Assembly: GCA_027217645.1 (NCBI GenBank)
Contig: GCA_027217645.1_4344.1
Direction: 5' to 3' (one strand)
Source: a phage
DNA: 41,360 nt
Shown here: positions 2,414 to 29,595 of the stretch, one piece after another
Layout of the letters: every line of letters begins with the position of its first letter
Numbering within the stretch: position 1 is the first letter of the stretch
Notes under the pieces: generated by a model
Databases searched by the model: none
Told to the model about the DNA's origin: nothing
What the model saw: only the letters and a program-made list of their open reading frames with translations
Program-made: the position numbers and the translations under genes

Positions 2414-2442
2414 ATAGTAGCCTATTCTATCTTAGTGTGCAA
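2414..2442 (-). promoter_or_regulatory. Sigma70-like promoter, TTGCAC-N17-TACTAT class
   Basis: Seen in sequence: minus-strand -35 TTGCAC (2437-2442), 17 nt spacer, -10 TACTAT (2414-2419); spacer/-10 contains the palindromic box AATAGTAGCCTATT (2413-2426). Confidence 0.5.
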
Positions 2443-3713: not shown

Positions 3714-3742
3714 ATAGTACCCTATTATGTTGGGGTGTGCAA
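3714..3742 (-). promoter_or_regulatory. Sigma70-like promoter, TTGCAC-N17-TACTAT class, for the leftward early operon
   Basis: Seen in sequence: minus-strand -35 TTGCAC (3737-3742), 17 nt spacer, -10 TACTAT (3714-3719); contains box AATAGTACCCTATT (3713-3726); near-identical to the promoter at 25940-25968. Confidence 0.55.
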
Positions 3743-22784: not shown

Positions 22785-25057
22785 TATTTAAACCCCGGCG
22801 CATTTCTTGTGGCTTTGCGGGCCTTGCTAATCTTGCTGTTGCTATTCTGCAAAGAGGCAGCCACCTGCTCCTCGATGATGATTCGCAAACGGCCTTCGTC
22901 ATCTTGCTCAGTGGATACGTTGCCGATTTGAGAACTCGTGTTGTTTACGATAGTAACATTAGACGGGCCGGAAGAAGACCCGTTTTGCCCCATAATTTCT
23001 TTCATCTGCTGTGCTGTGCGAACACGAGATGCGCCAGCCGGCATAATAACTTCTGGTTTACCGCGTTCAGCGATAGTAGAAGCCTGCCCGGCGGATAACT
23101 GCCCACCCTGTTCACGTGCGGACCGGATAGCGGAAATCTGCGCCATACCTGCACCAACGGCAGCGGCAGCGGCTACAGGGGCTAGGAAGGGGCCAACAAC
23201 GGGGATAGCAGCCGTTGACTTGTACGCTTCAATGGCTGCGGTGTATGTGGCGATAGTGGCCTGCACAATAGCGAATGCCTTGTACGCGCCAGAAGCCTCA
23301 CCCAACGCAGACCCGATGTTTGAGGCCATGTTACCAAAGGCCGTTGCCGTTGCATCGGCACGTTTGGTTGCGTATTGCTCGTTGATGGCGTTAAGAGCGG
23401 CCTGATACTGCTTCTCGCTAATCAGCCCCTGTTCACGGTATTTATCAGCTACCGCCAGTTTCTGCTGTTCCTGGATGTCGAGAAGCTCAAGCTCAGTAGC
23501 GTTCTGACCCATAATCTGAGCCATGAAGTCGTCACCTTTCTGCTGCTTTTCCTGGGCTTCTTTCTGGCGTTTATCCAGTTCATCTTGCCGTTTTTGCCCG
23601 GCTTCGAGGACGATAGCTGTTTTAGCCTGTTCGTATTCTTTCAGCGACAGCGCGCCCTGGCTGTAGAACTCTTTTGCCTTAGCCAGTTTCTGCTGTTCCT
23701 GCGCGTCGATAGCCTTTAACTCATCGTTGTTCTGGCGAGCCAAAGTGTCGAGGTAATCCTGCGCCTGATTCCGCAATTGTTCTGCTTTCTTGGCGGCGGC
23801 TTTTGCCGCTTTATCGTCGGTGTTTCCTGCCCCGCCAGTTCCGCCCTTTTTATTAACAAGACTGGCTAAGTCAATTTCTTGCTTCTTGCGCTCGTCGTAC
23901 TGCTTGCGCTGTTCCTCAATTTCTTTCTTACGCTGCTTAGACCTGTTGGTAATGGCCTGTGATTCTGCCTCTGCGCGTTTTATGCTAGCGGCGTACGCGG
24001 CGTCGGCCTCTGCGGTCAGGTTTTTAAATGTTAGCGCCGCCGTTTTGCTCGGGTCAAACACGTCGGCAAGGGTCTGCCCTAACGCTACAGCGTAATCGTC
24101 GATGCGCTGGAACCACGCAATAACCTCGTGAAATGTCTGCTGGATGTCCGGCAACCACTCACGGATGGCATCCGGTATAGTCCCCAGCGAGTCAGACATA
24201 TCAACGGATTTGTCCTCGGTATCGAATGCCAGGTCATTCAAGGCGTCGGAAATAAACTTGAATGACTCATTGAACAGCGCCACCCAATCCTGGAGCGTGG
24301 CGGCTATCTCATTAGACGCGATGGCGTCGGTAAGCGCCGTGATAGCGTCTTCCGCTGTGGCCGCTTGCTCACCTACGGCGTCGCCAAAACCAGACTGCGC
24401 CACCGCAAGAACAAGACCGTCGAAGGAGTCCGCCAGGCTAGATAACTGACCATCTAAGGTCTTCGAGCGCGTCTCCATCGCTCCGGCGAAATCAGTGTTA
24501 CCGATATTTAGCAGGTATTTCTGAATCTCTTCGGAGTTCTTTTTAACCGTGGTCGTTACGCCACGGAACGTAAACGAAACTGTATCCGCCTGTTGGGAAG
24601 ACTTGATACCGAACTCTTTTAAGCGCTCAAATTCAAATGTACTGGCGTCGGCAACTGCCTCAATCATTTGGTTAAGGTCTTTGCCCATAGCTGCGGCGGT
24701 GTTGCCGTAGGATATTAACGCCTCTTTGCTGGGGTTAAGACCTAGCGCCACGAGCTTGGTAAACCCCTCTACCGCCTGATTGAGGCCATACGGAGTTTCT
24801 TTTGCGAACTGTTGCAGGACGCTGAATGCCTTAGCAGCGTTCTCGGCGCTCCCGGTCATTGTGATGAGGCCGGAGTTCAGCTTATCGAAGTTGCGCTGGG
24901 AGTCCACCAGCGCACTGAACACCTGTTTGGCAGTTTCCAGACTGACAACGGCAGCGGCGGCGGCCCCCGCGGCTTTGGTAAGCCCGTTCAGTTGTGATGT
25001 GGTTTTATCGACGCCGGTCGATGATACTCGTACGATCAAGCTAGCGGTATCAGCCAT
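22784..25057 (-). CDS. Tail tape measure protein
   Basis: Track ORF 22784..25072 with start at the ATG at 25057; long Ala/Gln/Glu/Lys-rich coiled-coil protein downstream of the G/T chaperone pair. Confidence 0.85.
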   Translation of the reverse strand: MADTASLIVRVSSTGVDKTTSQLNGLTKAAGAAAAAVVSLETAKQVFSALVDSQRNFDKLNSGLITMTGSAENAAKAFSVLQQFAKETPYGLNQAVEGFTKLVALGLNPSKEALISYGNTAAAMGKDLNQMIEAVADASTFEFERLKEFGIKSSQQADTVSFTFRGVTTTVKKNSEEIQKYLLNIGNTDFAGAMETRSKTLDGQLSSLADSFDGLVLAVAQSGFGDAVGEQAATAEDAITALTDAIASNEIAATLQDWVALFNESFKFISDALNDLAFDTEDKSVDMSDSLGTIPDAIREWLPDIQQTFHEVIAWFQRIDDYAVALGQTLADVFDPSKTAALTFKNLTAEADAAYAASIKRAEAESQAITNRSKQRKKEIEEQRKQYDERKKQEIDLASLVNKKGGTGGAGNTDDKAAKAAAKKAEQLRNQAQDYLDTLARQNNDELKAIDAQEQQKLAKAKEFYSQGALSLKEYEQAKTAIVLEAGQKRQDELDKRQKEAQEKQQKGDDFMAQIMGQNATELELLDIQEQQKLAVADKYREQGLISEKQYQAALNAINEQYATKRADATATAFGNMASNIGSALGEASGAYKAFAIVQATIATYTAAIEAYKSTAAIPVVGPFLAPVAAAAAVGAGMAQISAIRSAREQGGQLSAGQASTIAERGKPEVIMPAGASRVRTAQQMKEIMGQNGSSSGPSNVTIVNNTSSQIGNVSTEQDDEGRLRIIIEEQVAASLQNSNSKISKARKATRNAPGFK

Positions 25058-25382
25058 GATTTCTACCTTCAAAGATTGCTTCTAAGCCCATGATAATGTC
25101 TATCTCGAACAGGCTAAGCTGTTTTTGCGTAACATCGAGATAGGCTTTCAGGTCTTGCCACGTAACGGATTCTCTTGCGAACAATACTACAGCGTCCTCG
25201 CGCACGTGTCGCGTAAACTTAATGTCGCAGTACGTCTCGAAGGTGGATATAAAAAGGGGCGGGCATTCTGGCCCACCCCGTCGCGCTGCACGTTTTTTCT
25301 TATCGATTACACCCATCGCGATAAGCGCCTGTTCGTGTCCGTCGGCTATAGAATCAAACTCTCTGATTTTATGCTTATCCAC
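25050..25382 (-). CDS. Tail assembly chaperone T-like extension, probably made as a G-T fusion by -1 frameshift
   Basis: Track ORF 110 aa in the -1 frame relative to the G-like ORF; this frame is open from the TGA at about 25437 through the end of G; stop overlaps the tape measure start. Confidence 0.4.
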   Translation of the reverse strand: MDKHKIREFDSIADGHEQALIAMGVIDKKKRAARRGGPECPPLFISTFETYCDIKFTRHVREDAVVLFARESVTWQDLKAYLDVTQKQLSLFEIDIIMGLEAIFEGRNHG

Positions 25383-25414: not shown

Positions 25415-25831
25415 CTACTTTTCCTGTAATGCTTTGCGCTCAGCGTTATGGAACGCTGCTACCTGTGTGCCTAATGCCTTGAACTGGTCCAGCAATTTGT
25501 TAAATGCTTCTTTAGAGAAAGGCTCATCAAAGCTCCAGCCGTTTACGACTTCTGCCGCGAGTTGCCGGTTGAGGCCTTCCGCCAGTTCGTTAATAGCCAG
25601 GTTATATTCAGTATAGTCGCCGGATTCTTTGGCGGCTTTTTCCAGTTCTTCGAAACGCGCCAACCCGCGACGGTACGCAATAATGAAAGCACGCCCCGCT
25701 TTAACGGCGACATCCGCATCGGGACTTACAACGTTAAGCCATTCACCGGAGTCTTCGCCGTTTGGCAGCAGAATGGGCATCTTCTTGCCTACCAGTGCTT
25801 TCTCTTCGAAATAAAAATCAGAAAGTTTCAT
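25415..25831 (-). CDS. Tail assembly chaperone (lambda G-like)
   Basis: Track ORF 138 aa; AAGGA RBS; position between the major tail region and tape measure; followed by a -1 frame ORF. Confidence 0.55.
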   Translation of the reverse strand: MKLSDFYFEEKALVGKKMPILLPNGEDSGEWLNVVSPDADVAVKAGRAFIIAYRRGLARFEELEKAAKESGDYTEYNLAINELAEGLNRQLAAEVVNGWSFDEPFSKEAFNKLLDQFKALGTQVAAFHNAERKALQEK

Positions 25832-25939
25832 TCTTTAATCCTTTGGTTAAGAGGTTACAGGTTAACGATAAATGCGCCAGACGGGAACCACCCGCTTTTC
25901 GTGTGCGACACTAGGCGCAAACTTATTCTATCACATTAC

Positions 25940-25968
25940 TTGCACACCCCAATATAATAGGGTACTAT
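25940..25968 (+). promoter_or_regulatory. Sigma70-like promoter, TTGCAC-N17-TACTAT class, driving the plus-strand cassette
   Basis: Seen in sequence: TTGCAC (25940-25945), 17 nt spacer, TACTAT (25963-25968); box AATAGGGTACTATT (25956-25969); near-identical to the minus-strand promoter at 3714-3742. Confidence 0.55.
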
Positions 25969-25998
25969 TCACTTACACCAACAATGAAGGGGTTTAAA

Positions 25999-26190
25999 AT
26001 GTCCAGTTTACCAGTTTCCTTAATTCTGTTTGCACTGCTCGCTTATTTCGCGCCTTTCCTGGTTGCGTACTTCCGTAACCATAAAGCGAAGTTAGCGATA
26101 TTCATGGCTAATCTGTTTCTTGGTTGGGTTCTGCTGCCGTGGGTATTTATCTTAATCTGGGCGTGCAACTCGAATGTCAAAGAGAAGTGA
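25999..26190 (+). CDS. Small two-helix membrane protein (superinfection-immunity-like or holin-like)
   Basis: Track ORF 25984..26190 with start at the ATG at 25999 (GAAGGGG RBS); two hydrophobic helices around a basic loop (YFRNHKAK). Confidence 0.5.
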   Translation: MSSLPVSLILFALLAYFAPFLVAYFRNHKAKLAIFMANLFLGWVLLPWVFILIWACNSNVKEK

Positions 26191-26227
26191 GCTAGTATAG
26201 GACAAATCCTAAACACGAGGAATAAGC

Positions 26228-27358
26228 ATGGCCAGGAAGAAAATAACCGACGAACAGTTACAGGAAGAATTGAACGCCGGTATGAAGAATATCGACATCG
26301 CCCGTAAATACGGCATCTCCGACCGCGTTATTCGTATCCGTAAAGCGAAGCTGGCTAAGAAAGGTGTAGGCCACGGGCGTGACGTTAGTTACCTTGTACC
26401 GGACGGCTACAAGATTAAAGGAACGTCATCACTGGTGGATGAGTTTGGCAACACCAAGTTGCAATGGGTTAAGACCGACACCGATGCCGAACGTCAGGTT
26501 GAATTGATGAAAGCCGTAATCGAAGGCATGAAGTCGGAGATTACACCAGTTGCACCTGTTAAAGCCGTTCGCGCCAAACGAGACGACAAGCTACTCAACC
26601 TTTACACTGTGTCTGATTTCCATCTCGGTATGCTGGCCTGGGCTGACGAGAGCGGCGACGACTGGGACATGAAGATTGCGGAAGACCTGTTCTCCCGCTG
26701 GTTCGACGCAGCGTTCCAGAAAGCACCGGATGCCGGAACAGGAGTTATTAATCTGCTGGGCGACCTTGCGCATTTCGATAGTCTGGACGCCGTTACACCT
26801 GCCAGTGGTCATGTTCTTGACGCTGACACCCGCTATCAGAAACTTGTACGCTACATGATTCGTATGGTCCGCCGTGTCATTGATATGGCTCTCGTTAAAC
26901 ATAAAAATGTTCGCTTGCTTATCGTGCAAGGTAACCACGACGAAAGCGGAATGATTTGGTTAGCTGAGATGTTTAGTACGCTGTACGACAATGAGCCGCG
27001 TGTGTTCGTCGATACGTCGCCGGATGTTTACAAGATGGTGCAACACGGCAAAACGACGCTGTTCTTCCATCATGGGCATAAAGCACGATTCGACGCTATC
27101 GAACCGGTTATGATCGCCAAGTTCCGCAAAGCGTTCGGCGAGAGTGTTTACAGCTACGCCCACGTGGGTCACCTGCACCACCAAAAGATTGTAGAAAGCC
27201 GTAACATGATTGTTGAGCAACACCGCACTCTCGCGGCTAAAGATGCATATGCCTCCCGCGGTGGGTGGATGTCGGGCCGCAGTGCAAACGTAATTACTTA
27301 TAGCGCCGAATATGGCGAGGTCGCACGTTTAACTATTTCACCGGAGATGCTTGGATGA
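26228..27358 (+). CDS. Calcineurin-like metallophosphoesterase with N-terminal HTH domain
   Basis: Track ORF 376 aa; N-terminal HTH-like DIARKYGISDRVIRIRKAKL; phosphoesterase motifs SDFHLG, GDLAHFD, GNHDE, GHLHH. Confidence 0.65.
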   Translation: MARKKITDEQLQEELNAGMKNIDIARKYGISDRVIRIRKAKLAKKGVGHGRDVSYLVPDGYKIKGTSSLVDEFGNTKLQWVKTDTDAERQVELMKAVIEGMKSEITPVAPVKAVRAKRDDKLLNLYTVSDFHLGMLAWADESGDDWDMKIAEDLFSRWFDAAFQKAPDAGTGVINLLGDLAHFDSLDAVTPASGHVLDADTRYQKLVRYMIRMVRRVIDMALVKHKNVRLLIVQGNHDESGMIWLAEMFSTLYDNEPRVFVDTSPDVYKMVQHGKTTLFFHHGHKARFDAIEPVMIAKFRKAFGESVYSYAHVGHLHHQKIVESRNMIVEQHRTLAAKDAYASRGGWMSGRSANVITYSAEYGEVARLTISPEMLG

Positions 27359-27840
27359 AAGATATTGTGATTTTCGATTTAGACGGGACATTGGCAGATG
27401 GTACTCATCGTTTACACCTGCTGCCGAAAGATAACTACGGCGAAACCTGGGCGTGGAAACCATTTAACATGGCGTGCAAAGACGATGCACCCATTAAAGA
27501 TAACATCGAACTGTGTAACGCCCTTAATCGTCGCTATGCCGTTATTATCTTAACAGGCCGTAGTGATGACGCGGAAAAAGAAACCAGAATGTGGTTGCAG
27601 CGCCACCGCGTCGAATTTTATCAGTTAATCATGCGCAGCAAACACGACAACAGAAAAGACATCGTAATTAAAGAAGAGGTGTTGCGTGCTATTGGGCCGG
27701 AGAGAATCTTGTGTGCATTCGACGACTCTCCAGCGGTAATAAAGCATTTCCGCGAACTCGGCATAACCACTCACGCAGTTACTGAATACGACTGTAACGG
27801 GAACTCTACACACTTAAAACCACATGGGAGTGATAAATAA
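27355..27840 (+). CDS. HAD-superfamily phosphatase (nucleotidase or polynucleotide-phosphatase-like)
   Basis: Track ORF 161 aa; N-terminal FDLDGTL catalytic motif; ATGA overlap with upstream gene. Confidence 0.6.
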   Translation: MKDIVIFDLDGTLADGTHRLHLLPKDNYGETWAWKPFNMACKDDAPIKDNIELCNALNRRYAVIILTGRSDDAEKETRMWLQRHRVEFYQLIMRSKHDNRKDIVIKEEVLRAIGPERILCAFDDSPAVIKHFRELGITTHAVTEYDCNGNSTHLKPHGSDK

Positions 27841-28394
27841 TGGCTAAGGTAATTATTCTTAATGGTCCTGCGGGCTGCGGGAAAGACACACTTGCTAGGG
27901 TGCTGGTAGAAATGGGCTTTGCGAAGGGTGTCGCCAGTTTCAAGAATCCGATGTTCAATATTGCTATGGCTGCGTTAGGCCAGGATGCTTACCGCGAGTT
28001 TCTCGACGGCTACGACGACCGGGCGCGGAAAGAAAAGCCAGAGGGTTTCCTTAACGGGTTGTCTCGGCGTCAGTTCATGATTGCCATTTCCGAGCAATTC
28101 ATTAAACCGGTATTCGGTGATGATTATTTCGGTAAGTATCTTGCCGGAAACTTGCCCGACGGCGACGAAGTTTTTGTGGTGTCTGATGGCGGGTTCGCCA
28201 GCGAAGTAGCCCCTATCGTTGCCGCGGGGCATGATGTGAGAATCGTCCGCTTGCACAGAGACGGCCATACGTTTGAAGGGGACAGCCGCGGTTACCTGTA
28301 CGATATTAATGGTGTAAAAGATTATGACACCTACATCATACCGGGTTACGTTAAATCGAACGCTATAGGCATTGCTTTAAGATTAGGTTTGTAA
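27840..28394 (+). CDS. Deoxynucleoside monophosphate kinase-like P-loop kinase
   Basis: Track ORF 184 aa; Walker A GPAGCGKDT with the GKDT signature seen in T4/T5-type dNMP kinases. Confidence 0.6.
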   Translation: MAKVIILNGPAGCGKDTLARVLVEMGFAKGVASFKNPMFNIAMAALGQDAYREFLDGYDDRARKEKPEGFLNGLSRRQFMIAISEQFIKPVFGDDYFGKYLAGNLPDGDEVFVVSDGGFASEVAPIVAAGHDVRIVRLHRDGHTFEGDSRGYLYDINGVKDYDTYIIPGYVKSNAIGIALRLGL

Positions 28395-28396
28395 GA

Positions 28397-28427
28397 AAAA
28401 GGCCCCGTTTGGGGCCTTAGTTTTATG
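28397..28427. terminator. Bidirectional rho-independent terminator (identical to 15969-15999)
   Basis: Seen in sequence: same 31 bp hairpin plus flanking A/T runs; the major tail gene stop codon lies in the T tract. Confidence 0.7.
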
Positions 28428-29595
28428 CGTATGTGATACGCTGAATAACAATAGACGACTGGTACTGGTTGCCAGTAGCCTGACCTTCAATAGACTGAGT
28501 GATTGACTCAGGTCCTCCAATCTCAGGTGTAACCGCCGTAAGTTCTGCACGTTTCAAACTGAAAGACATAGCCCCGTTTACCCCAGCCAGAATAGAGTTA
28601 ATCTCCACCTGCTGCTCGTTGATAAACTTCTGAATCATCGCCATGTCGTACAGCTTACCGGAGATGGAGAAGGTGTTAGCTGCTCGGCTACGCTCCACAA
28701 ACGCTACGTTAGTGTTGCCGAGTTCGAACTGTGCGGACGCGCTGTTGTCGTTGGTGATGGTCAGGCTGTCGCAACGCAACGGCGTAGAACCGTCGAACAC
28801 AGAAACATCTACCGAGGAGAATGGCTCGTCACCAAACGTAACAGAGGAGAAATCAGAACCATACGGCTGCGTGGTGAGAATCTCCTGACTGCGACCGATG
28901 AACGGGAAGCTGCCAGTTACCATAGCGTTAACAGCCTGTTCGATGGTAAAACCAGAAACTTCCACGCCTTTGGTTAGTGTGTACGCGTCAGTCCCGCCGC
29001 ACTGGCCTTTGTACCAGGTAAGGATAGAGAACGTCTTACACGTGTTACCGGTTTCCAGCGTGTCGCCGGTTTTAGCCTTACTAGTTTTTGTCTCGGTGGT
29101 CAGGGTGTGTTGGATGCCCGCACCGGTAACAACCGTAGCCGTTACTGCAGTAACAATAAATGGTTTTGCGTTATCGCCTGTTAAATCGGTAAATGCAATC
29201 AGGTCGCCTACCTCAACTCCGTCAGTGATAAAACTGCCGGTAGCGCGTGTGAACGTCTTGCCCGCGGGTGCGACGGTAATCGACAGACTGGACAGGGAAA
29301 CACCGGATTGCCACGTAGAGCCTAAAGCACCAGCCAGCCAGTCATCCTGGCTTTTCGAGCTAAGCTCGATCGCGTATTCACCGCTAACCTGTTTGTTACC
29401 GGTGCGGATGGATGTAGTTTCACGGCTGCCGTCCAGTTCGTTGGAGGTCAGCGTGTCGCGGGTGATAGCAGGAACACCGCCAGTGTTACGCAATGGCGAC
29501 CAGACCGGGTTAGTCGGTGTTACGCCAGGGGTAGTTTCTGCCACATAGAATTGCGCAGTATTCGCGCCCTTAAAAGGAGTTGTAGCCATATTCAC
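28423..29595 (-). CDS. Major tail (tube) protein candidate
   Basis: Track ORF 390 aa; last and largest gene of the tail-shaft block, ending at a terminator. Confidence 0.5.
   Translation of the reverse strand: MNMATTPFKGANTAQFYVAETTPGVTPTNPVWSPLRNTGGVPAITRDTLTSNELDGSRETTSIRTGNKQVSGEYAIELSSKSQDDWLAGALGSTWQSGVSLSSLSITVAPAGKTFTRATGSFITDGVEVGDLIAFTDLTGDNAKPFIVTAVTATVVTGAGIQHTLTTETKTSKAKTGDTLETGNTCKTFSILTWYKGQCGGTDAYTLTKGVEVSGFTIEQAVNAMVTGSFPFIGRSQEILTTQPYGSDFSSVTFGDEPFSSVDVSVFDGSTPLRCDSLTITNDNSASAQFELGNTNVAFVERSRAANTFSISGKLYDMAMIQKFINEQQVEINSILAGVNGAMSFSLKRAELTAVTPEIGGPESITQSIEGQATGNQYQSSIVIQRITYA

Follow-up and report, generated by a model that had tools for sequence, protein, structure and literature searches.

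A plus-strand accessory locus with two exchangeable gene slots between the tail genes of a Kagunavirus, and its putative role in nucleotide salvage

A conserved frame with two variable slots

The phage DNA analysed in the present study (NCBI GenBank assembly GCA_027217645.1, contig GCA_027217645.1_4344.1), called the window in its whole length of 41,360 nucleotides, represents a complete or nearly complete Kagunavirus genome (Guernseyvirinae, K1G-like). Between its minus-strand genes for the tail tube and the tail assembly chaperones lies a locus of four plus-strand genes, which encode a small superinfection immunity protein (imm), a helix-turn-helix (HTH)-fused metallophosphoesterase (MPE), a HAD phosphatase and a deoxynucleoside monophosphate (dNMP) kinase. 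The genes are preceded by a promoter-like element and followed by a bidirectional terminator hairpin (Table 1). A 2.9-kb region around the locus shares 99.7% identity with Escherichia phage vB_EcoS-UTI89UKE1 and 98.2% with phage K1G. The locus had been noticed from the letters of the window (the sequence-only reading) as one cassette inserted into the late region, with a promoter and a terminator of its own. This observation as a whole was confirmed: the open reading frames (ORFs) were found at the expected places, and the domain calls for all four proteins hold by Pfam, PHROGs and structure models. Its interpretation was partly supported.

The gene content of the locus was compared in 80 viral contigs retrieved via the MPE and 62 retrieved via the kinase, in each of which the four genes and the tail genes were located. 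In the 16 Guernseyvirinae contigs with tail-gene synteny, the HAD and kinase genes are either both present (seven contigs) or both absent (nine), and never occur singly. The MPE is 79–100% identical across these 16 contigs and 93–100% identical among the Kagunavirus-like ones. The pair fills slot 2 (27359-28390): DNA homology to pair-less contigs ends exactly at the MPE stop (27358) and is regained at 28391, by the shared terminator. Independently of the pair, imm forms another indel, slot 1 (about 25971-26196); contigs without imm lose their homology to the window at 25970 and regain it at 26197. Besides, of 199 related GenBank records, just 49 have a coverage of 80% or more of the 2.9-kb region, and at an identity of at least 80% the MPE is found in 292 records, the HAD in 57 and the kinase in 53.

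The locus is a conserved frame, comprising the promoter, the MPE gene and the terminator, with two swap slots, and not one obligate unit. The description of the four genes as a single cassette was not upheld, given the two independent slots, the absence of the HAD-kinase pair from most relatives and the distance of about 13 kb between the pair and the MPE gene in phage T1. The term "inserted" is appropriate for imm and the HAD-kinase pair, which are variable, but not for the antisense position, the promoter, the MPE gene and the terminator, which are common to the examined Kagunavirus and Jerseyvirus contigs.

Slot 2 has alternative occupants: a conserved 76-aa protein, sometimes accompanied by a 66-aa protein, an HNH endonuclease or an Ant-like DNA-binding protein. 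The 76-aa protein (MTSKYNRTMTNTHGSTM...LEKLREYRSNIDE) was found in the pair-less Kagunavirus and Jerseyvirus contigs L012, L015-L020 and L003 (for example, L017:6128-6358). The layout in Jerseyvirus LP31 (L003) is the same as in the other pair-less contigs. In Kagunavirus-like contigs the start of the 76-aa gene overlaps the MPE stop; it does not do so in L015, L016 and L019, where another gene intervenes, nor in the Jerseyvirus contig L003, where it begins about 70 nt 3' of the MPE stop. Slot 1 of contig L010 (4610-4936) holds, instead of imm, a gene for a 108-aa protein with a signal-peptide-like N-terminus (MRKLVLALGFMSFATFGSPC...), which may be a different exclusion or envelope factor. HNH homing endonuclease genes lie between the HAD and kinase genes in T1 (ST63; L150 4948-6534) and directly after the MPE gene in L019:6137-6610; these insertions mark the locus as a hot spot for mobile endonucleases.

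Outside Guernseyvirinae, the same enzymes recur in other arrangements. In coliphage Rao1, which is T1-like by gene order and lacks a family assignment in its record, gp56, gp57 and gp58 correspond to the MPE (45% identity), the HAD (50%) and the kinase (50%); their order is that of the window, and the lysis genes follow directly. The order and layout of the trio in Webervirus GH-K3 are as in Rao1. In T1, the HAD (ST64) and kinase (ST62) genes are separated only by the HNH homing endonuclease gene, and the MPE gene (ST16) lies about 13 kb off on the circular map, beside the lysis genes. These arrangements indicate that the HAD-kinase pair and the MPE gene are two separable units, which are often neighbours. 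The HAD gene is situated within 5 kb of the kinase gene in 50 of the 62 kinase-bearing viral contigs. According to a 2026 study of phage KanT1, an exonuclease-holin-endolysin-spanin module persists in 508 of 522 Drexlerviridae, and the genes found most commonly right after the exonuclease are annotated as "polynucleotide kinase" and "dNMP kinase" and were read as serving nucleotide supply (PMC13164509).

Gene products and regulatory elements

Pfam recognises only a P-loop in the kinase, and PHROGs places it in phrog_139, "dNMP kinase" (6.6e-46). The kinase shares 50% identity over 172 aa, along its whole length, with Rao1 gp58, named R1DNK (E 4e-61; the R1DNK sequence was taken from the supplement of bioRxiv 10.1101/2024.12.20.629578 and from the Rao1 genome record). 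Its P-loop reads NGPAGCGKDT; G14, K15 and D16 are invariant in 114 homologues, and all family-invariant residues are kept. The structure model based on the 114 diverse homologues (pLDDT 95.0) has T4 dNMP kinase as its top Foldseek match (1DEK, E 1.9e-5, TM 0.67), followed by adenylate-kinase-like proteins and phosphomevalonate kinases; no polynucleotide kinase, the Pnkp kinase domain included, occurs among the top 50 fold matches. T4 gp1 (1DEK) was not recovered from the PDB with either the single kinase sequence or a 14-sequence profile. The PDB sequence searches gave only P-loop noise and a repeat-protein artefact (6nyr), which were discarded. The kinase is a member of the R1DNK clade, not an orthologue of gp1.

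The R1DNK family has been characterised in connection with the Kongming defence (KomABC). Escape mutants of Rao1 from Kongming map to gp58, and the enzyme is an efficient kinase of dAMP, dGMP and dCMP, with dTMP as a poorer substrate (Zeng et al., bioRxiv 10.1101/2024.12.20.629578). R1DNK, together with KomA and the host Ndk, makes the alarm signal dITP; Lys15 is needed for triggering, which is abolished by the K15A substitution. Deletion of dnk from Rao1 lowers dATP moderately, with no apparent fitness cost, and the DNKs of Klebsiella phage VAC2 and phage KarlJaspers likewise trigger Kongming (same source). Reading of the published VAC2 and KarlJaspers sequences, unaligned, reveals the same conserved motifs as in the window kinase. 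The 50% identity to R1DNK and the retention of the invariant residues therefore make the window kinase a member of an experimentally characterised family. By homology it is probably a dNMP kinase, the catalysis demonstrated for the Rao1 homologue being presumed here.

The HAD protein matches PF25109 (HAD_PNKP) with 72.1 bits against a cut-off of 27.6 (6.7e-20; profile positions 2-140 of 143). In the PDB it matches Capnocytophaga Pnkp1 (4xrp, 1.7e-6), the T4 Pnkp phosphatase domain (5uj0, 1.6e-5) and full-length T4 Pnkp (1ltq, 1.8e-4). The hhalign comparison of a 9-sequence profile with the RB69 Pnkp phosphatase domain gave 98.4% probability (E 5e-15, 129 columns). Residues D8, D10, G11, T12, T67, G68, R69, R100, K101, D102, D123 and D124 are invariant in nine homologues, and the motifs DxDGT, TGR, RKD and DD, which carry the catalytic residues of T4 Pnkp, align to those of RB69 Pnkp. 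The protein and T5 Dmp both match phrog_415 (8e-67 and 3.6e-57), yet BLASTP aligns only 48 aa around motif I and hhalign only the N-terminal 68 columns (54.6% probability, E 1e-4). The phosphatase call has thus been refined: the protein is predicted to be a Pnkp-type 3'-phosphatase without the Pnkp kinase, much closer to Pnkp than to Dmp. No ligase is present among the 52 annotated K1G genes, a result that concerns the annotation only, with no dedicated ligase profile search. The label of phrog_415 is "polynucleotide kinase", but its members include HAD phosphatases that lack a kinase, T5 Dmp among them; many phage records have taken over the label, e.g. K1G gp21, T1 ST64 and Rao1 gp57. Because the HAD lacks a kinase domain, this label is a misnomer.

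PHROGs assigns the MPE to phrog_704, "DNA repair exonuclease". The Pfam scores are under the curated cut-offs (PF00149, 18.9 against 21.5; PF12850, 21.6 against 27), and PDB sequence and profile searches gave only sub-threshold matches to HTH and Mre11/SbcD/"Nuclease MPE" entries (profile E about 0.6-1). The family comprises 4630 representative clusters at E ≤ 0.001 and occurs in 2045 phage records. A set of 5.8 billion proteins, searched with the single sequence and a 7-sequence profile, yielded only relatives of at least 95% identity, and the diversity was obtained from the representative library. The motifs DxH, GD, GNH(D/E), H and GHxH are present; D130, H132, G178, D179, N236, H237, H282, G314 and H317 do not vary among 138 sequences, and H315 hardly does. 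Motif II, GDLAHFD, has the Mre11-like form and not the GDxVDRG of protein phosphatases.

The MPE model (pLDDT 93.5) comprises a three-helix HTH (aa 8-44), a beta-hairpin with a helix (aa 61-104) and the catalytic domain (aa 119-376). The HTH bundle bears a weak likeness to the GerE/LuxR and LrpA HTH domains. The structural neighbours are, by score, the PolD DP1 proofreading exonuclease (15.8), Mre11 (15.1), SbcD (15.0), LpxH (13.7), MJ0936 (13.5), Rv0805 (12.2), the Pseudomonas putida MPE (9.4) and PPP protein phosphatases (about 9); a Foldseek search agrees in outline with this nuclease-first ranking. The view of the MPE as a second phosphatase is not sustained, the protein being structurally closest to the nucleases PolD-DP1, Mre11 and SbcD. 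A nuclease is the best-supported reading, with a modest margin. No Rad50/SbcC/SMC-like partner is annotated in the 41-44 kb genome. T5 A1 was rejected as a homologue (hhalign 16% probability over 20 columns around the NHD motif, no Pfam match and a different PHROG), and the aRES "phage phosphatase", representing Macro-domain enzymes in NARP1 operons, is irrelevant to the locus. In 68 diverse viral contigs (L024-L087), the neighbours of the MPE gene include endolysin (14 loci), HNH (nine) and holin-like genes, a gene for a 119-aa Q/sigma-like protein directly downstream (six), and terS, terL and portal genes (five each); this boundary position between lysis and packaging genes recalls that of the NinI phosphatase in lambda.

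The imm product matches PF14373 with 48.3 bits against a cut-off of 27.9 (9.3e-13) and phrog_1039 (1.4e-22), and two hydrophobic stretches are visible in its sequence. By these matches it is assigned to the T4 Imm-type superinfection immunity proteins, in keeping with the suggestion that the membrane protein could be a superinfection-exclusion factor. None of the four proteins scores above the NCBIfam cut-offs, and PADLOC, the library of which predates Metis, gave no matches for any of them.

The promoter-like element, read as TTGCAC, 17 nt, TACTAT, is a weak sigma-70 match and was missed by a consensus scan, which gave an overlapping ATCACA-17-TATAAT at 25930-25958 instead. The claim that it is of the same sequence class as the leftward promoters was borne out by two further copies of the 29-mer on the minus strand (Table 1). 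Each of the three copies sits just 5' of a start codon, and their conservation extends about 10 nt further downstream (to about 25978 at the locus), including TCAYTTA. The element is kept upstream of the locus in 16 related Kagunavirus loci, some without imm or without the HAD-kinase pair; its recurrence and retention therefore point to a real repeated element of one class. K1G carries the same three copies. The spacer is also conserved, with a partial dyad ACCC-N10-GGGT in two of the three copies. The element could serve as an operator bound by a phage regulator, for which the HTH of the MPE is a possible candidate.

The terminator hairpin, with eight pairs (six G-C) and T runs on both strands, folds with -19.1 kcal/mol (z = -4.15), and none of 200 shuffled sequences folds as well; a bidirectional terminator at the end of the locus was thus verified. 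The consensus scan revealed no minus-strand promoter-like site between the locus and the chaperone gene (25832-25998), and therefore late transcripts of the chaperone and tape-measure genes would have to pass the hairpin and run antisense through the 2.4-kb cassette. Leftward late transcripts probably read through the bidirectional hairpin. It may be speculated that such convergent antisense transcription switches the cassette off late in infection.

The MPE, HAD and kinase genes overlap start-to-stop (ATGA at 27355 and TAATG at 27840). The joined frameshift product of the flanking chaperone genes is annotated in the K1G record. A strong G+C-rich hairpin on the minus strand (25256-25279(-); nine pairs, eight of them G-C, followed by TTTTT) is located inside the T-frame chaperone ORF, where it could act as an internal attenuator or have a structural function in the G/T region. 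A search of the window against Rfam gave no matches.

Table 1. Coordinates of the locus and associated features in the window
Feature	Position	Strand	Remarks
Promoter-like 29-nt element, TTGCACAC-N8-AATAGG-N-TACTAT	25940-25968	+	Pattern match, recurrence, conservation in related loci
Sister copy of the promoter-like element	3714-3742	-	Heads the leftward small-gene region; 28/29 bases identical to the 25940 copy
Second sister copy of the promoter-like element	2414-2442	-	Exact pattern match
imm, 63 aa	25999-26190	+	ATG 25999 after GAAGGGG ribosome-binding site; alternative ORF start 25984
HTH-fused binuclear MPE, 376 aa	26228-27358	+	
Predicted stand-alone HAD phosphatase, T4 Pnkp 3'-phosphatase type, 161 aa	27355-27840	+	
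Predicted dNMP kinase (DNK), R1DNK / T4 gp1 type, 184 aa	27840-28394	+	
Bidirectional intrinsic-terminator hairpin, common to the cassette and the tail-tube gene	28399-28418	both	
Tail tube (major tail) gene, flank	28423-29595	-	PF18906, 7e-37
Tail assembly chaperone genes, flank	G frame 25415-25831; T frame 25050-25382	-	PF08748, PF23812

Proposed role of the locus and alternative explanations

With a confidence slightly above even, we favour the reading of the locus as an accessory transcription unit of Guernseyvirinae with exchangeable slots, which combines an early module salvaging host DNA to deoxynucleoside triphosphates (dNTPs) with a superinfection-exclusion gene. Host RNA polymerase would transcribe the unit from a promoter co-regulated with the two leftward promoters. 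Imm would presumably act at the inner membrane, blocking DNA entry of superinfecting phages. The MPE, judging from its fold and conserved catalytic residues, would be a Mn2+-dependent DNA nuclease guided by the HTH, with host DNA as a candidate substrate. The fold and catalytic residues of the HAD suggest that it probably strips 3'-phosphates from DNA ends or 3'-nucleotides, letting the breakdown products reach 5'-dNMPs. The kinase would convert dAMP, dGMP, dCMP and, less well, dTMP to the deoxynucleoside diphosphates, from which the host Ndk would make dNTPs for phage replication. Together, the three enzymes would feed products of host-DNA breakdown to the phage dNTP pool early in infection.

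The pairing of such a nuclease with a 3'-phosphatase has a rationale in the P. putida MPE nuclease, which is described as leaving mixed 3'-PO4 and 3'-OH ends (PMC7826289). The dispensability of the HAD-kinase pair and the role of the kinase as a Kongming trigger would explain the coming and going of the pair among near-identical phages. Besides, Guernseyvirinae are restricted by Ec2ApeA, a sensor of 5'-phosphorylated dinucleotides thought to stem from genome degradation. The sequence-only reading had left the choice between a nucleotide-pool and an end-processing module; the first part is supported by the kinase, which has a characterised homologue in R1DNK and T4 gp1 as its best fold match, and the second, in the form of end healing of the T4 Pnkp or CthPnkp type, is weakened by the small-molecule nature of the kinase and the lack of an annotated ligase in K1G. 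Homology to ordinary, dispensable dNMP salvage enzymes, which tells against that reading, is largely what was found for the kinase, the Rao1 deletion being free of cost.

Several points weigh against the salvage reading. The MPE stands alone, without the kinase pair, in most phages that carry it, and its gene often lies beside lysis or packaging genes; thus its primary role may be unrelated to the pair. It is not obvious why a kinase acting on 5'-dNMPs should be paired with a 3'-phosphatase, and the membership of the HAD in the PHROG of T5 Dmp leaves room for a nucleotide substrate. The upstream element is a predicted promoter, the activity and early timing of which are presumed.

Among the alternatives, all of them unlikely, the least improbable is that the HAD is a (deoxy)nucleotide phosphatase resembling T5 Dmp and directed against nucleotide-sensing immunity. 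By removing dAMP, m6dAMP or related precursors of the signals, it would compensate for the risk that comes with the kinase, exposed to Kongming, or with host-DNA degradation, exposed to Metis and ApeA. T5 Dmp is a 5'-dNMPase and a proven anti-Kongming factor, Dmp homologues are often found with DNKs, and the linkage of HAD and kinase is almost constant. The shared phrog_415 and the host Metis system, which uses the HAD protein MisB to destroy m6dAMP, also agree with this explanation. However, Rao1 is Kongming-sensitive despite the 50%-identical HAD beside its kinase, and is rescued by T5 Dmp supplied in trans, which speaks against an effective depletion of dAMP by the HAD; the HAD profile, moreover, fits Pnkp far better than Dmp.

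Rather improbable is a nucleic-acid end-healing module, serving as counter-defence to anticodon or other RNA/DNA nucleases, in which the kinase would act on 5'-OH ends, the HAD on 3'-phosphates, the MPE would open 2',3'-cyclic phosphates and a host ligase would seal the ends. The clear Pnkp type of the HAD, the translational coupling of the MPE, HAD and kinase genes and an accessory distribution typical of counter-defence genes are consistent with it, as is the bacterial Pnkp/Hen1 system, in which a kinase and a metallophosphoesterase are used (PMC3675462). It is opposed by the 50% identity of the kinase to a proven dNMP kinase, with T4 gp1 and no polynucleotide kinase in the top 50 folds, by the lack of a ligase in the K1G annotation, by the MPE gene being remote from the pair in T1 and alone in most phages, and by the placement of lambda-phosphatase-type folds far below nucleases in the MPE ranking.

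An equally low probability is assigned to a reading in which balancing selection acts on the HAD-kinase pair, as part of an arms race between the phage and nucleotide-sensing immunity. The kinase would raise the dNTP supply but expose the phage to Kongming; the HAD, possibly with the MPE, would edit the DNA-breakdown signals of Kongming, Metis and ApeA, namely 3'-phosphorylated or modified mononucleotides and dinucleotides; and the antisense placement would be a timer, the start of late transcription shutting the module off. If this were true, the HAD would be an anti-defence enzyme of a new type, different from T5 Dmp.

Still less probable is a regulatory or signalling role of the MPE, which would then be a protein phosphatase targeted by its HTH, a phosphodiesterase of cyclic nucleotides or a regulator of late genes, merely co-transcribed with unrelated accessory genes. 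The weak likeness of the HTH to the GerE/LuxR and sigma-70 region 4 folds, together with phrog_836, the position of the gene in many unrelated phages at the boundary of lysis or late-regulator and packaging genes, as for lambda NinI, and the occurrence of Rv0805 and GpdQ among the fold matches would suit such a role. Against it stand the fold ranking, which favours nucleases, and motif II, which is not of the protein-phosphatase form. A DNA kinase for thymidine hypermodification, redirection of the dUMP/dTMP pool and degradation of cyclic oligonucleotides were dismissed, as no hydroxymethylase or modification genes are annotated in K1G and the pair is optional among near-identical phages.

Part of this picture is already known: dozens of GenBank records label the domains of the four genes in much the same way, biochemical and immunological work on the kinase family is available, and the literature has taken up the arrangement of exonuclease, polynucleotide kinase and dNMP kinase. 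The present study adds the two-slot frame and the exact positions of its breakpoints, a place for the kinase in the R1DNK clade, the finding that the HAD resembles Pnkp much more than Dmp, a nuclease-like fold for the HTH-MPE and the repeated promoter-like element. The practical value concerns annotation and phage therapy. The "ATP-binding protein" or "hypothetical" protein of many Kagunavirus records would be a dNMP kinase of the Kongming-triggering clade, and therefore its presence or absence could predict host range on E. coli carrying KomABC. Natural near-isogenic Kagunaviruses with and without 27359-28390 are ready material for the study of the cost and benefit of the pair; the same phages could help to reveal the role of the HTH-MPE, found in thousands of phage clusters.

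Comparison with known systems

The closest parallel to the locus is the trio of Rao1, Webervirus and other Drexlerviridae, with the same three genes in the same order; the window kinase keeps Lys15 and the family-invariant residues. In Rao1 and Webervirus, however, the trio precedes the lysis genes on the strand of its neighbours, whereas in the window it is antisense between tail genes, is preceded by imm and has its own predicted promoter and terminator; in Kagunavirus, the pair is optional. T5 possesses a functionally analogous triad, A1, Dmp and Dnk, for host-DNA degradation, HAD phosphatase and dNMP kinase activity, and its Dmp shares phrog_415 with the window HAD. The T5 genes, unlike those of the window, are dispersed and do not make up one operon, A1 is without convincing homology to the MPE, and Dmp matches only the N-terminal third of the HAD.

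As regards the individual enzymes, T4 gp1 (1DEK) is the best structural match of the window kinase, and both have a GKD P-loop. The identity, however, is 19%, the window kinase is 184 aa long against 241 aa in gp1, and R1DNK takes all four canonical dNMPs. The window HAD aligns with the phosphatase domain of T4-type Pnkp over 129 columns (RB69), with the catalytic positions DxDGT, (S/T)GR, RKD and DD kept, and is similarly small. In contrast to T4 Pnkp, it is stand-alone, the adjoining kinase is of the gp1 type and not the Pnkp 5'-kinase, the gene order is reversed and no RNA ligase partner is annotated. The MPE differs from Mre11, SbcD and PolD-DP1 in its low identity (12-17%), in having both Metallophos scores below the cut-offs, in the N-terminal HTH, which stands in place of the capping or OB domains, and in that no Rad50/SbcC-like partner is annotated.

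T4 Imm and the window imm product have in common the PF14373 match above threshold, a small size and two hydrophobic helices. The window protein differs in its length of 63 aa, in its location in a siphovirus tail-gene region and in being exchanged for the unrelated 108-aa secreted-type protein in sister phages. The Metis defence comprises MisA, a calcineurin-like MPE that cleaves NAD+, and MisB, a HAD protein that degrades m6dAMP (bioRxiv 10.1101/2025.11.05.686725). Compared by description only, MisA and MisB represent the same two superfamilies as the phage MPE and HAD. MisA has a PUA-like sensor domain, whereas the N-terminus of the window MPE is a three-helix HTH, and the window HAD matches PF25109 and PF00702, not PF13419, the HAD type of Metis.

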